From a virus: a DNA stretch of 64,000 nt. The stretch is taken from the IMG/VR virus record IMGVR_UViG_3300037311_000293. One strand, given 5' to 3'. The translations under genes and the position numbers were made by a program. The notes under the pieces were generated by a model, which had not been told where the DNA came from, made no database searches, and worked only from the letters and a program-made list of their open reading frames with translations. This document shows positions 13,743-55,140 of the stretch, piece after piece. Within the stretch, counting starts at the first letter, position 1. Each line of letters opens with the position of its first letter.

Positions 13743-14090
13743 TCAGAGCTCGTGTACGTATACGGGCTTACCCCTACTCTTCATCTTTGCGATCATGTCT
13801 GCGGTTCCCCCACTCTTGGAGAACCACACGGCGATCAGGGCATCAGCATAGTCGGCCATGCGGGTGTTGCGCAGTTTGCCGGCGGCCATGTTCTTGTCCC
13901 AGTCGGCGTCTTCGACGTAGAACGTCTTGATCGGCTTGCGATTGACCCCGGCCCACACTTCTCCAAAGGTATCAGCGCCCGCAGCACCACCGCTCACGAC
14001 TTCCGTGATCGAATAGCCGGACAACCGTATGGCGTCGAGCACGTCGGTATACTTCACGCCCTTCCTGCTACCCGCGATGATCACTTTCAT
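13743..14090 (-). CDS. SLOG family protein (YspA/DUF2493-like)
   Basis: IIAGSR, VVSGGAAGAD, AGKLRN..MA..ADALIAVW, SGGTADM. Confidence 0.85.
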   Translation of the reverse strand: MKVIIAGSRKGVKYTDVLDAIRLSGYSITEVVSGGAAGADTFGEVWAGVNRKPIKTFYVEDADWDKNMAAGKLRNTRMADYADALIAVWFSKSGGTADMIAKMKSRGKPVYVHEL

Positions 14091-15300
14091 GTTCGATGAT
14101 CCTGTTGTAGAGAGTAGTAGTTCTTGACCGCGGATCGTTGTTGGTCAACGCCGAAGCGAGACCGGTGTCGCTGTAGAACATGACCACACCCTTCTTAGCG
14201 CGCGTAACCGCGGTGTAGAGTAGCTGGCGGTTCCACATGTAGTGGTGGCTGCCGTGTACCACCACGACAACCCAGTCCCATTCCGATCCCTGCGACTTGT
14301 GGATGGTGAGAGCATAGGCGAGCCGTAGAGTCGCCGCTTCCTCACGGGTGAAGTCAACTACGTTGCCGTCGAAGTCGACTGACATCTTGTCGTCTTTGAT
14401 CTCTACGACCTCTCCAATCTCCCCGTTGAAGACGTTCTTGTCGTAGTTGTTCTCGGTGGCCATCACTTGATCACGCGCACGGATTGCGTACTTCCCGCCC
14501 TTCGACGTCTTGGCGTTGAAGTGTGGTTCGTCCTCACCGTTGATCCGTTGAATCGGATTGATTGCAGACTGCAAGTAGTTGTTCAGCTTCTCGATGCCGA
14601 TGTCGCCTGAGTTCTGCGGAGCCAAGACTTGGATATCCTTGATCCCGGCTTCGGGCATGGACTTTGTGACCATGGCCGTGAGGGTACGCGCCAGCTTTTC
14701 TGCATCCGACAGCTTGTACGCCCGAAAGTCCGGACATCCTGTCAGGATGTCGATGTCTCCTGACAGGATCAGCGGAGCGTTTCTGCACACCCAGGACTCC
14801 AGCGCAGAACGATGAACCTTCTCGAGACGGACCACGGGCAGAGCATTGGACAAGATGATGTCTTCGAAGACGCGCCCAGGACCCACTGAAGGCAACTGAT
14901 CGACGTCTCCCATGAAGAAGAGTCGGGTCTTCTGCGTGTTGACGGCGTCGAGGAGCGCTGCCGCCGTCTCCGTGTCGAGCATGGAAGACTCGTCGACGAT
15001 CAATACATCGTGAGTCAGCGGATTCTGTGCGTTGTATCCGTATTCCCAACGACCAGGGCCGCCCTTGGCATCCAGAAGCCGATGAACCGTGAACGCCGCG
15101 GTGTTGGTGACCTCTGTGATCCTCTTGGCTGCTTTGCCGGTTGGGGCTACGAGACCAACAAGCCGCCCACGCATTCGCGACAGCGCCTCCTTGAGGATCG
15201 TAGTCTTACCCGTACCAGGCCCACCGGTGACGACACCGCTACGACTGTTCACCAACATCTGAACTGCTGTCTCTTGCGTCGGATCCAGTACGATCGTCAT
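14068..15300 (-). CDS. recD: RecD2-like SF1B helicase, motor (C-terminal) part
   Basis: TGGPGTGKTT, IVDESSM, GDVDQLPSVGPG, YALTIHKSQGSE, LLYTAVTRA. Confidence 0.93.
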   Translation of the reverse strand: MTIVLDPTQETAVQMLVNSRSGVVTGGPGTGKTTILKEALSRMRGRLVGLVAPTGKAAKRITEVTNTAAFTVHRLLDAKGGPGRWEYGYNAQNPLTHDVLIVDESSMLDTETAAALLDAVNTQKTRLFFMGDVDQLPSVGPGRVFEDIILSNALPVVRLEKVHRSALESWVCRNAPLILSGDIDILTGCPDFRAYKLSDAEKLARTLTAMVTKSMPEAGIKDIQVLAPQNSGDIGIEKLNNYLQSAINPIQRINGEDEPHFNAKTSKGGKYAIRARDQVMATENNYDKNVFNGEIGEVVEIKDDKMSVDFDGNVVDFTREEAATLRLAYALTIHKSQGSEWDWVVVVVHGSHHYMWNRQLLYTAVTRAKKGVVMFYSDTGLASALTNNDPRSRTTTLYNRIIEHESDHRG

Positions 15301-16177
15301 TGTCGTCCCTCGAAAGATTGATCAGTTTGTCTGCGATCGATTGTTCTGCACGAGCCAAACCGGCAAGTTGAATGTGGTCGCGATACAGAATGACCTGTTG
15401 CAGTAGTATCGCTTGCTCCACCGCAGAGACCGCTTCTTGATACTTGATGTCCGCGAGCCCGAGTACCAGGTTCACGACCTCGAAGGGGTCCACTGCGGTG
15501 TCGCCCTCTTGAGCTCTGCGCCGCATTGCCTCCACGACGCTTGCTACAAGCCTGTTCTCACTTGTACGGCTCTGAGCCTTGGCGGCCCGAATAGCATCCA
15601 AGCGGTCGTAGGACAGGTTGACGCCCTCGACGAAGTACAGGGCGAAGACCTCGTTGATGAAGTCGTCGAGTACGATCCCGGAGCGTCGAAGCCTGTGGAC
15701 CTCAGTCGCGGTGAACCCGCAGTTGTAGCAAGTGACGTAGTACTCGCGCTCTTCCTTGAACTTGATGTACGCAGTACGGATCTCTTCCGCGCGTTCGAGA
15801 GTGATACCGCTGATCGCAGCAAGACGTACCGGCTCGAACTCGATGACATCCCAGAGCTCCTCACCGAAGGTCTCCACGAGAGCCTTCACGCGCTGCGGCC
15901 CGATCTGGGGAAGTCGATCGATCATCCACTTCTCGTTGGCCGCGTTGCCCGTGGGTGCACTTCTGATCACCGTAGATACAGCGAACTGCCGCCCATACTT
16001 CGGGTGCTCTTTCCATTGACCCGTGAGATCGACGACATCGCCTACGCGAAACTCTTCAAGATGACCGCTGATTTGGTAGAACCGCGGACCGCTCTGAAGC
16101 GTGCCGTATTTCCACCCATCCCACGACTTGCTCGAAAGCGCGGTGATCTCACCGCTCAGCCCTACGATTACGCTCAT
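15239..16177 (-). CDS. RecD2 N-terminal part (OB fold plus HhH)
   Basis: GQWKEHPKYGRQF, LPQIGPQR...FG, AEEI. Confidence 0.85.
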   Translation of the reverse strand: MSVIVGLSGEITALSSKSWDGWKYGTLQSGPRFYQISGHLEEFRVGDVVDLTGQWKEHPKYGRQFAVSTVIRSAPTGNAANEKWMIDRLPQIGPQRVKALVETFGEELWDVIEFEPVRLAAISGITLERAEEIRTAYIKFKEEREYYVTCYNCGFTATEVHRLRRSGIVLDDFINEVFALYFVEGVNLSYDRLDAIRAAKAQSRTSENRLVASVVEAMRRRAQEGDTAVDPFEVVNLVLGLADIKYQEAVSAVEQAILLQQVILYRDHIQLAGLARAEQSIADKLINLSRDDNDDRTGSDARDSSSDVGEQS

Positions 16178-16445
16178 CCAGCAACTCCCTGAGTTTCGCA
16201 GGAGGACTGACCTCGTATCCCGGCGGATCGGCCAGAAAGGGTACCCACTCCTGTACGTCGAACACGAAAAAGATCACCCATACCTCGGAGGTGTGGCGAT
16301 CTACATAACATCCGATGTCAGAGCCCGACAGCATGAACCCTGATCCATCAGCCGCCGTGAACCGTGCATCGTTCCCTTCTCTGATCACCGTACCATACCC
16401 AAACAGCGGGCAGTATGTGATACAGGGATCAGAAAGGGATGTCAT
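16149..16445 (-). CDS. hypothetical protein
   Basis: Fills the operon gap; start uncertain. Confidence 0.45.
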   Translation of the reverse strand: MTSLSDPCITYCPLFGYGTVIREGNDARFTAADGSGFMLSGSDIGCYVDRHTSEVWVIFFVFDVQEWVPFLADPPGYEVSPPAKLRELLDERNRRAER

Positions 16446-16707
16446 CTGACCCGAAATCATCTTCGGGGAAGTCGACCCCACGAGGCTGTGGTCTTCGTCC
16501 TTTTGTATCAGACCGCTTCCCAGTCCCGCGCGGCTTGACCACGAGCTTGGCCGTTTCCGGGAGCCTGGACAGATCCAGAAGCGGATTGAGGTGCAGCACC
16601 AACCCGCTGTCGTCCCCGCGCAGGGGCCAGGCAACACCACAGACGTGCCATCTGTTGTCGATGACCACGAGAATGTCGTGCGTCGGGGGTACGCGCTCGT
16701 TACTCAT
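16429..16707 (-). CDS. small ssDNA-binding-like protein with acidic DDIPF tail
   Basis: W..CGVAW....G..L.L core; C-terminal EDDFGSDDIPF. Confidence 0.6.
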   Translation of the reverse strand: MSNERVPPTHDILVVIDNRWHVCGVAWPLRGDDSGLVLHLNPLLDLSRLPETAKLVVKPRGTGKRSDTKGRRPQPRGVDFPEDDFGSDDIPF

Positions 16708-16876
16708 CGTGAACCTCGAGACGTCGGTGCATCTTGTTGATCTTCGCACACAGAGCCGGAAAGGCTTTGTTTCTGCGAAGGACACTGGTGTCTCCACCAC
16801 GAGCCAGAGCGTTGAACAGCGCGTTCAGGAGGATGATCTCCTCGTCACTGAACGACGTAGAAAGTCGCTTCTTCAT
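16700..16876 (-). CDS. 58-aa hypothetical protein (absent from the ORF track)
   Basis: Hand translation MKKRLSTSFSDEEIILLNALFNALARGG...; GAGG RBS; overlaps the next start. Confidence 0.6.
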   Translation of the reverse strand: MKKRLSTSFSDEEIILLNALFNALARGGDTSVLRRNKAFPALCAKINKMHRRLEVHDE

Positions 16877-16894
16877 GTGGCCTCAGTTAGTAAC

Positions 16895-16951
16895 GAGGAT
16901 CCGCGCTTCATTGGAGGAGAGAACGAGAGGAGGTACGAAGCGCGGATCCTC
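16895..16951 (-). ncRNA. candidate structured leader/small RNA: 15-bp stem with an anti-SD loop
   Basis: GAGGATCCGCGCTTC / GAAGCGCGGATCCTC perfect inverted repeat; 27-nt loop contains ACCUCCU and CUCCUCC in the sense direction. Confidence 0.45.
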
Positions 16952-16956
16952 AAATA

Positions 16957-16963
16957 CTGATAG
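16957..16963 (-). promoter_or_regulatory. CTATNAG motif (CTATCAG)
   Basis: Between the thyA terminator and the hairpin. Confidence 0.6.
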
Positions 16964-16965
16964 GC

Positions 16966-16996
16966 AAAAATGAAAGGGATCCGAAGATCCCCTTCA
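16966..16996 (-). terminator. intrinsic terminator after thyA
   Basis: TGAAAGGGATC/GATCCCCTTCA stem plus TTTTT. Confidence 0.75.
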
Positions 16997-16997
16997 T

Positions 16998-17849
16998 TCA
17001 CACGGCAACAGGTGCCTTGATGGCTGGGTGGTGATTGTAGTCCACAACCCGCACGTTCTCTGGCCGCACCTTGAACAGATCGGTGGGCCCGTCGATGCGA
17101 AGCGTAGGAGACGGAAAGACCTCACGCCGCAGTTGCTCCAACGCCTGATCGCGGTGGTTGGCGTAGAGATGAACATCCCCGAAGGTGTGGACGAACTCGC
17201 CGACCTCGTATCCAGTGCTCCGTGCAACCAGATGCGTCAGCAACGCATAGCTCGCGATGTTGAAGGGGACGCCGAGGAAGATGTCGGCGCTGCGCTGGTA
17301 CAGGTGGCAGCTCAGCTTCCCGGACTCGACGTAGAACTGGAACAGCGTGTGGCACGGCGGAAGAGCCACCTCGGTCGCTTCCTTTGGGTTCCAGCCGCTC
17401 ACAACAAGACGTCGACTTGTCGGGTTTTTCTTGATCTCGTTCACCACCCACGAGAGCTGGTCGAAGCCATCACTGGCGTACGTACCGTCAGCGAGCTTCG
17501 TGGCCCCGAAGTTGCGCCACTGGTGCCCGTATACCGGACCGAGCTCGCCTTCGGGTCTGCCAAACCGCGCACACTGCTGCTCGGTGGCCCACTCGTCCCA
17601 GATCGTAACACCAGCCTGTTTCAGCGGAGCCACGTTCGTCGATCCGCTGATCATCCAGAACAACTCGTGGACGATCGACTTCACGTGCATCTTCTTCGTG
17701 GTCAGAAGCGGAAAGTTTCTCTCCAGGTTGAACCGAAGCTGCTCACCGAAGAGCCCGTAGGTGCCCACTCCCGTTCGGTCGGAACGCTCTGCTCCTCGAA
17801 GCAAGAGCTTCTCAAGAAGAGTGAGGTACGCCATGTCGTGATACATCAT
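16998..17849 (-). CDS. thyA: thymidylate synthase ThyA
   Basis: [49 protein letters not shown]. Confidence 0.98.
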
Positions 17850-54409: not shown

Positions 54410-54433
54410 GTGCAAAAACCAGTCCGAAATCAC

Positions 54434-54440
54434 CTATTAG
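54434..54440 (+). promoter_or_regulatory. CTATNAG motif (CTATTAG)
   Basis: Intergenic after gyrB. Confidence 0.5.
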
Positions 54441-54476
54441 TAGATGAAGAGGAACTATCCCTTCACAACACAAACA

Positions 54477-54504
54477 CCCTGCATCAGTGATGCGGGTTTT
54501 TTTT
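54477..54504 (+). terminator. intrinsic terminator (possible attenuator)
   Basis: CCCTGCATCA/TGATGCGGG stem plus T8, located between the promoter motif and the next RBS. Confidence 0.7.
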
Positions 54505-54519
54505 CTGGAGGAGAGAACC

Positions 54520-55140
54520 ATGACGCAGACCACCGCCGCGAAGAAGACCGAGAAGAACAACGAGCAGCTCGACGCCGTCGTCGAGGCCGTCGAGAGCCGC
54601 ATCGCCTCCTCGGAGGCGAAGGTGGCCGCCCACGTGGCGTCCGAGATGGAGGCCACGAAGAGTCAGATCAAGTTCCTGGCCCGCGGGCTCCAGCAGATCA
54701 TCGACGGTGGGCCCGCGCCCACCGCCGGCCTGGTCATCCCGGCCTCGTCGCCGCGGCCGATCGAGGAGGGCCTCCTGGGCCTGCGCAAGCGGCCCGCCCC
54801 GGTGAAGGTGACGCTCACCGAGATGGAGGCGCTCGCTCGCGTGCCCAGCATCGCGGCGCACATGATGACCGGGGCCAGCGAGGACCCGGCGACGCAGGAG
54901 GTGCTCGACACCGCTGCCGCCGGCCTGCTGTCCGCCGCCGTCAAGGCCGCGTACGACGGCGGCCTCATCGAGGCGCCGAAGAAGCCGATGAGCACGGCCA
55001 TGAAGGTCGGGCTCGCGGTCGGTGGGGTCGCGGTCGTCGGCGGCCTCGGCTACCTCGGCTACCGCGCCTACAAGGCGGCGGAGGCCACGGAAGCCGAGGA
55101 CGAGCTGGTGGAGGCGGTGGACGCCGAGATCATCGTCTGA
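54520..55140 (+). CDS. C-terminally anchored membrane protein
   Basis: Very high GC3; GLAVGGVAVVGGLGYLGY transmembrane segment followed by an acidic tail. Confidence 0.75.
   Translation: MTQTTAAKKTEKNNEQLDAVVEAVESRIASSEAKVAAHVASEMEATKSQIKFLARGLQQIIDGGPAPTAGLVIPASSPRPIEEGLLGLRKRPAPVKVTLTEMEALARVPSIAAHMMTGASEDPATQEVLDTAAAGLLSAAVKAAYDGGLIEAPKKPMSTAMKVGLAVGGVAVVGGLGYLGYRAYKAAEATEAEDELVEAVDAEIIV

Follow-up and report, generated by a model that had tools for sequence, protein, structure and literature searches.

Hairpins with unpaired, C/U-rich loops that base-pair with the Shine-Dalgarno (SD) regions of target mRNAs are established in the Bacillota, where they occur in RNAIII and in RsaE/RoxS. 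The anti-SD motifs of these RNAs (UCCC or CCCC) are carried by separate small RNAs or by a long host regulatory RNA. Stem-loops at the 5' terminus of an mRNA that stabilise the message are likewise established (the ompA-type leaders). In the Alphaproteobacteria, the cuckoo RNAs (Cuckoo, CcsR and NfeR1, alpha-r14) consist of two to four adjacent hairpins, each of which exposes CCUCCUCCC in its loop (PMC4615179). Their stems drift by compensatory change while the CU-rich anti-SD loop motif is kept, and repression of translation by occlusion of the ribosome-binding site has been proposed or shown for them (PMC4615179).

The hairpin described here was found in a virus record of IMG/VR (177,453 bp, 60% G+C), of which a stretch of 64,000 nucleotides, referred to as the window, was analysed; coordinates and strands are those of the window unless a contig is named. 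Like the cuckoo family, the phage hairpin has compensatory changes in its stem and a conserved, CU-rich anti-SD loop. Unlike the cuckoo RNAs, which are free-standing sRNA genes, it is situated within an mRNA leader, without a terminator and with an open reading frame (ORF) about 20 nt further on; it consists of one hairpin, the large loop of which bears two different tracts, it does not contain CCUCCUCCC, and it is without a match in Rfam (no family was hit at E values up to 10). It is not a member of the cuckoo family and at most works in the manner of that kind of RNA. With RNAIII and RsaE/RoxS it shares an unpaired, C/U-rich loop, and it differs from them in host, sequence and architecture. 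As in the ompA-type leaders, the stem would be placed at the extreme 5' end of the message if transcription begins at the predicted start, but those leaders impose no requirement on the loop, whereas the loop is the most conserved part of the phage element. Of the features of the trans-acting anti-SD riboregulator class, an exposed loop complementary to SD sequences, a covarying stem and a fixed loop sequence were found.

Genomic setting and fold of the hairpin

The hairpin and its surroundings comprise the following features:

16998-17846, minus strand: thyA (thymidylate synthase), upstream of the hairpin (Pfam PF00303, E 2.6e-108)
16966-16999, minus strand: intrinsic terminator of thyA, with a 14-bp stem, a UUCG loop and a U-run (RNA fold)
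16957-16964, minus strand: promoter-like box CCTATCAG; the stem starts 5 nt past the box
16937-16951, minus strand: 5' arm of the RNA hairpin, opening with GAGGA at the invariant G of the box units (fold, covariation)
16910-16936, minus strand: 27-nt loop with two anti-SD tracts, including the invariant blocks UACCUCCUC and GUUCUCUCCUCCAA
16895-16909, minus strand: 3' arm of the RNA hairpin, with UCCUC at its end (fold, covariation)
16874-16894, minus strand: stretch left unpaired in the centroid fold, comprising the spacer, GAGG (16881-16884) as a weak SD, and the start codon ATG of the first ORF
16700-16876, minus strand: 58-aa ORF, the first gene past the hairpin, with the orthologues B62 (55% identical) and E91 (45%)
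14068-16707, minus strand: remainder of the operon (Pfam; synteny in L006, L007, L009, L013 and L067), with the four genes below
16429-16707, minus strand: 92-aa ORF
16149-16445, minus strand: 98-aa ORF
15239-16177, minus strand: RecD2 N-terminal OB/HHH protein (Pfam)
14068-15300, minus strand: RecD2-type helicase core (Pfam)

All real genes around the hairpin are located on the minus strand, in the order dCTP-deaminase-like gene, thyA, 58-aa, 92-aa and 98-aa ORFs, and split RecD2-type helicase; the plus-strand ORFs in the hairpin region were rejected as shadows of real genes. The thyA gene, annotated with 282 aa in the identical contig L006, has its closest cellular homologues in the Myxococcota (about 68% identical), which hints at a host from this group. 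A gap of 121 nt separates its stop codon (16998) from the start of the 58-aa ORF (ATG, 16876); in this gap, the terminator, CCTATCAG, 5 bases, the stem-loop, a 10-nt spacer, GAGG, 4 bases and the ATG follow one another along the minus strand. The terminator is kept in relatives, and its G-U pairs are valid on the minus strand. The hairpin is part of the 80-nt leader of the mRNA of the 58-aa ORF/RecD2-helicase operon.

Searches of Pfam and PHROGs gave no match for the small ORFs of the operon, the 58-aa ORF included. The AF2 model of the 58-aa protein is helical and gave no significant match with Foldseek against the PDB; its N-terminus is weakly ribbon-helix-helix-like, with CopG-type PDB matches at E values of about 8-9, which are not significant. 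Pattern and word searches with this protein returned no relatives outside its own cluster. The family (58, 62 and 91 aa; window 16700-16876, minus strand; L007:4970-5158; L067:3313-3588) has a helical body and, at the N-terminus, the shared motif K/R-R-(L/F)-S-x-S-F-S-x-E-E. The two parts of the split helicase (14068-16177, minus strand), OB/HHH protein and core, overlap by about 60 nt, and the split is kept in relatives; the helicase core of one relative (P0135, L066:292-2724) is 810 aa long and has weak Pfam matches to intein-splicing and LAGLIDADG domains.

An earlier note on this DNA, made from the sequence alone, had described 15-bp perfect arms enclosing 27 nt and a minus-strand loop with two anti-SD tracts. 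The inverted repeat was found exactly so (16895-16909 and 16937-16951, 100% complementary), and the loop contains CCUCCU and CUCCUCC, the two tracts being CCUCCUCUC and CUCUCCUCC. The note had also placed the stem 5 nt past a CTATCAG motif that follows the thyA terminator; the spacing and the terminator stand, and the motif has to be redefined as the 8-mer CCTATMAG.

When the RNA of the minus strand is folded, G-U and U-A pairs extend the stem to 15-17 bp, the main stem amounts to about -30 kcal/mol, and the loop is unpaired in the minimum free energy (MFE) fold as well as in the centroid fold. The fold z-score against shuffled sequences is -6.7 for leader plus terminator and -3.8 for the leader alone. 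The hairpin is the longest perfect intergenic stem across the 177-kb phage and occurs once. Since only about 0.014 perfect 15-bp inverted repeats (spacer 3-45 nt) are expected in the whole phage genome, it is not a product of chance. Past the stem, the window continues with GUUACUAAC and has no U-tract; the hairpin was not called in a scan for intrinsic terminators, the typical loops of which measure 3-8 nt vs 27 nt here.

The pyrimidine tracts of the loop (16912-16932, minus strand) form a mirror repeat of 9+9 nt around GTT (7+7 nt in the sister lineage B, see below), which is not clearly above chance given the two-letter composition. Such mirror tracts could in principle bind one purine run by Watson-Crick plus Hoogsteen pairing, or form H-DNA.

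Promoter-like box and predicted transcript start

The 8-mer CCTATMAG is present in 17 copies in the genome, compared with 7.5 +/- 2.8 in shuffled sequences; every copy points into a gene (17/17), and many come after the U-run of a terminator. The sixth base past the box is a G in 17/17 units, and at the unit 16957-16964 this G is the first base of the hairpin. A GGAG/GAGG motif begins exactly five bases past the box in 10 of the 17 units. An ORF starts at most 35 nt from the box in 16/17 units, the only exception being the hairpin unit (80 nt), where the hairpin fills the extra distance and the GAGGA of its 5' arm sits in the place that is occupied by the Shine-Dalgarno sequence in other units.

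From this arrangement we infer that CCTATMAG would be the promoter of a phage-specific class and that transcription would start at the invariant G, which would make the stem 5'-terminal without an overhang. With the G as the transcription start, an SD-like 5' end would be hidden by the UCCUC of the 3' arm. At other box sites (e.g. window 1603, 4753, 12783, 19505 and 22281) the invariant G usually opens an SD of the GGAGG type. Most messages of the box class would begin at their own ribosome-binding site, and their leaders would measure no more than about 10-15 nt.

Covariation in the sister lineage

When the phage collection was searched at the DNA level for close and remote matches, only thyA was hit, and no GenBank phage was found to carry the hairpin; scans of IMG/VR for the exact arms and for the loop pattern gave no copy either. 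Syntenic contigs were located via protein look-ups instead. The window and the near-identical contigs L006 and L009 constitute lineage A, and L007, L008 and L010-L013 the sister lineage B, the proteins of which are 73% (ThyA), 78% (helicase) and 55% (58-aa ORF) identical to those of the window.

The flanking genes of the two lineages are 60-73% identical at the DNA level vs about 90% for terminator, box and hairpin. All 15 stem pairs (15/15) are kept in each of four distinct sequences, and the search for covariation that the earlier note had called for revealed three pairs in which both partners differ. The series U-A in lineage A, U-G in lineage B and C-G in L013, observed at one pair, keeps its pairing on the minus strand alone; read from the opposite strand, the lineage B step becomes a C-A mismatch. 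When the partner strand was slid as a control, the paired fraction dropped to 26-66%. In the loop, 23/25 aligned bases are identical between A and B. Both CCUCC tracts are included in two invariant blocks (9 nt with CCUCCU and 14 nt with CUCCUCC), and the loop centre differs by one substitution and one indel. The spacer between stem and ATG has diverged.

Compensatory changes in the stem combined with a fixed loop indicate two kinds of selection, one for base pairing of the stem in the gene-sense RNA and one for the sequence of the loop. That the minus strand encodes a functional RNA structure, as the earlier note had supposed, is therefore very likely, and the conservation of the loop in relatives expected from that reading was found as well, with both anti-SD tracts invariant between A and B. 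The region contains indels of 1, 1 and 2 nt between A and B, so no coding frame runs across it. A 42-codon ORF that spans the hairpin was rejected, its frame being broken by indels in lineage B.

Recurrence in more distant relatives

In lineage E (L067; helicase 54% identical), CCTATCAG is followed by a stem of 19-22 bp of unrelated sequence and a loop that contains CCUCCU. This hairpin heads the same RecD2-helicase operon, and its stem ends only 2 nt before a GGGAGG SD. In this lineage, the 58-aa ORF has its orthologue upstream of the hairpin, and the first gene past the hairpin is the orthologue of the 98-aa ORF; the hairpin is thus not tied to the 58-aa gene. The loop is exposed and the downstream SD unpaired in the folds of all lineages. 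The slot of thyA is occupied by a ThyX-type enzyme (L067:1952-2848), a non-orthologous replacement.

In lineage G (L070/L071; helicase 59%), the same operon begins with a variant of the box and a short leader of the usual kind without a hairpin, and the hairpin is dispensable at the helicase operon of this lineage. Elsewhere in lineage G (L151:1500-1622; G002:69850) a box, a G and a 9-bp hairpin with the loop AUCCUCCUUC are followed by a second strong hairpin and an unrelated 220-aa gene, which has no orthologue in the phage of the window; the leader is 110 nt long, the second hairpin is a near-perfect one of 24 bp, and the fold z-score is -7.9. The 9-bp hairpin was found with a pattern that requires CCTCC, and reversed-pattern controls matched equally often; as a recurrence of the design it is only suggestive.

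The relative L068 (helicase 48%) is without the gap and without the element. At L068:6232-6280, a CCTATAAG box is bracketed by an inverted repeat, formed by CTCCACCT on the upstream side and the complementary AGGTGGAG, which contains an SD, immediately downstream. A scan with the single helicase protein returned nothing, and a search with a two-sequence alignment returned only a relative of 37% identity, which is without the element. Contigs L065 and L066 begin too near the helicase to cover the leader, and G001 (IMG/VR, 38 kb, twin of the contig behind L017) is without the helicase region. Judged by the contigs compared, the predicted design of box, 5' stem and anti-SD loop has a recurrent but patchy distribution in this phage group.

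Complementarity of the loop to phage messages

SDs of the GGAG type are present at 80/201 crude gene starts of the phage. Duplex energies of the loop over all start regions of the phage were no better than those of shuffled CU-rich loops, so the general complementarity reflects base composition. The earlier note had proposed a riboregulator that silences GGAGG-led mRNAs. General silencing of this kind is not supported by the duplex energies, and nothing points to a discrete RNA, as no terminator follows the stem and the element is an operon leader. The prediction of targets that the note had suggested gave one extended match that is better than chance in the set of start regions:

54506-54522, plus strand: start region (ribosome-binding site plus ATG) of the 206-aa gene 54520-55140, a candidate trans target with 13 nt of perfect complementarity to the loop

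At this site, 13 contiguous nucleotides of the invariant 14-nt loop block are perfectly complementary to the ribosome-binding site, and the SD is covered. The gene is located between the topoisomerase and terminase genes. A match of 13 nt was reached by 0/300 shuffled loops with the set of start regions and by 7/100 with the whole genome, and the duplex amounts to about -25 kcal/mol vs -10 for an oligonucleotide resembling the 16S tail. In L017 (topoisomerase 67%), the gene past the topoisomerase keeps 9 of the 13 matched bases at its ribosome-binding site. A 10-nt loop match to the ribosome-binding site of a lipoprotein gene is lost in lineage B with the loop unchanged, which calls for caution with short matches, and no extended target for the loop of lineage E was found in 11 kb of sequence from that lineage.

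Just past the stop of the topoisomerase gene (window 54432-54522, plus strand) there is a box variant, CCTATTAG, where L017 and L018 have CCTATAAG. About 60 nt past CCTATTAG, there is a terminator-like hairpin with nine consecutive T, which directly adjoin the SD of the 206-aa gene; the hairpin could be a leader attenuator, or simply the terminator of the topoisomerase gene.

Proposed function and alternative explanations

We propose that the mRNA of this replication/recombination operon would be transcribed from a phage-specific promoter box just past the thyA terminator and would carry the cis-encoded hairpin at, or within a few bases of, its 5' end. The stem of 15-17 bp, starting from the first base of the transcript, would cap the 5' end and hide the 5'-terminal, SD-like GAGGA, a type of sequence that would be the real ribosome-binding site in other box units. 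The open 27-nt pyrimidine loop would present an exposed anti-Shine-Dalgarno sequence, which would pair with purine-rich ribosome-binding sites of other phage messages in competition with the 30S subunit, whether the hairpin is still attached to its mRNA or persists as a stable 5' fragment after decay. Among the candidate targets, gene 54520 (206 aa) would rank first, an uninterrupted duplex of 13 bp covering its SD. The hairpin probably controls translation, as the comparison of lineages suggests; SD pairing in trans by the loop of a 5'-terminal leader hairpin is the reading that we prefer, and we hold it tentatively. If it remains attached to an mRNA, the loop may not be abundant enough for the titration of many messages. 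In a more far-reaching version, which we consider unlikely, the hairpin would be a phage-made mimic of the 16S rRNA tail, a stable 5' fragment that would silence the box-class messages with their SD at the 5' end together with gene 54520, perhaps as a Watson-Crick/Hoogsteen clamp on one ribosome-binding site, and would serve as a timing device.

The most serious alternative to trans pairing, possible though on the unlikely side, is a purely structural 5' element that protects from 5'-end-dependent decay or provides an RNase III site, with a loop that serves as a protein-binding site, e.g. for ribosomal protein S1 or a phage RNA-binding protein. A stem that starts at the predicted first transcribed base, is long and G+C-rich, is kept by compensatory change and is replaced in relatives by a long 5' stem of quite different sequence would suit such a role, and so would a loop that pairs with start regions no better than shuffled loops do. 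A stabiliser, however, needs no set loop, yet 23/25 loop bases are fixed and CCUCC recurs in loops on unrelated stems. No candidate binding protein was identified, and bS21 was not found in the genome. A search of the genome for RegB gave no match, the control being silent too.

Control of the first gene in cis, in which the anti-SD of the loop, or the CCUCG at the end of the 3' arm after opening of the stem, would pair with the downstream SD, appears improbable. The operon's own SD lies 10-12 nt past the stem in A and B, loop-SD duplexes of 4-6 bp can be drawn (-6.5, -9.2 and -10.8 kcal/mol in A, B and E, respectively), and the end of the 3' arm could pair with the (U/C)GAGG of the SD in A and B. 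This pairing of 4-6 bp, however, neither extends nor covaries. The SD is free in every fold, any extra pairing predicted there in E being small and weak; in A and B, the centroid folds leave both the SD and the ATG past the stem single-stranded, which is not the arrangement of a sequestering leader. In lineage E, a linker of 2 nt after a stem of 19-22 bp makes a loop-SD pseudoknot sterically implausible on geometric grounds, and the gene past the hairpin differs (58-aa ORF in A/B vs the 98-aa ORF orthologue in E).

Little probability is likewise given to a co-transcriptional signal for a phage RNA polymerase, i.e. an attenuator, pause or antitermination hairpin, positioned like HK022 put or acting as a leader terminator that yields a short RNA and read-through. 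The hairpin is promoter-proximal, very stable and placed at the head of a long operon, and a U-rich run follows the stem in B (four consecutive U) and in E (seven U in nine bases). The window, on the other hand, has GUUACUAAC in place of a U-tract past the stem, and the 27-nt loop is unlike the 3-8 nt loops of terminators; no downstream terminator in need of override was identified, and such a signal would leave the fixed anti-SD sequence unexplained.

A DNA-level element (an operator for the 58-aa protein, a cruciform, an origin element, or H-DNA formed from the mirror repeat of the loop) is very improbable. The perfect inverted repeat adjoins the promoter-like box, the loop has its 9+9 nt mirror repeat, and the first ORF is weakly ribbon-helix-helix-like, albeit with the non-significant CopG-type matches (E about 8-9) given above; but compensatory arm changes with a wobble intermediate fit RNA pairing and not a protein half-site, the 58-aa orthologue of lineage E is upstream of a hairpin with an unrelated stem sequence, and the context is without an AT-rich stretch or iterons. 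The remaining suggestion of the earlier note, a plus-strand RNA with GGA motifs acting as a CsrA/RsmA sponge, is left with a negligible probability and was rejected: the plus-strand loop is GGA-rich and the plus strand folds too, but the wobble pair of lineage B becomes a C-A mismatch there, the neighbouring genes, box and terminator are all oriented along the minus strand, and neither a plus-strand promoter-like site nor an Rfam match was found.

Conclusions

The regulatory RNAs of lytic phages, above all of uncultured large ones with their own transcription machinery, are almost unexplored. For the hairpin described here the comparative support is unusually clean, comprising a compensatory stem, an anti-SD loop kept in sequence and a defined site at the start of an operon message. 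Even if it does no more than cap the 5' end, the hairpin indicates where transcription from a phage-specific promoter class probably starts. If pairing of the loop with ribosome-binding sites is true, large phages would time their own translation as bacterial RNAs of the cuckoo and RNAIII types do.
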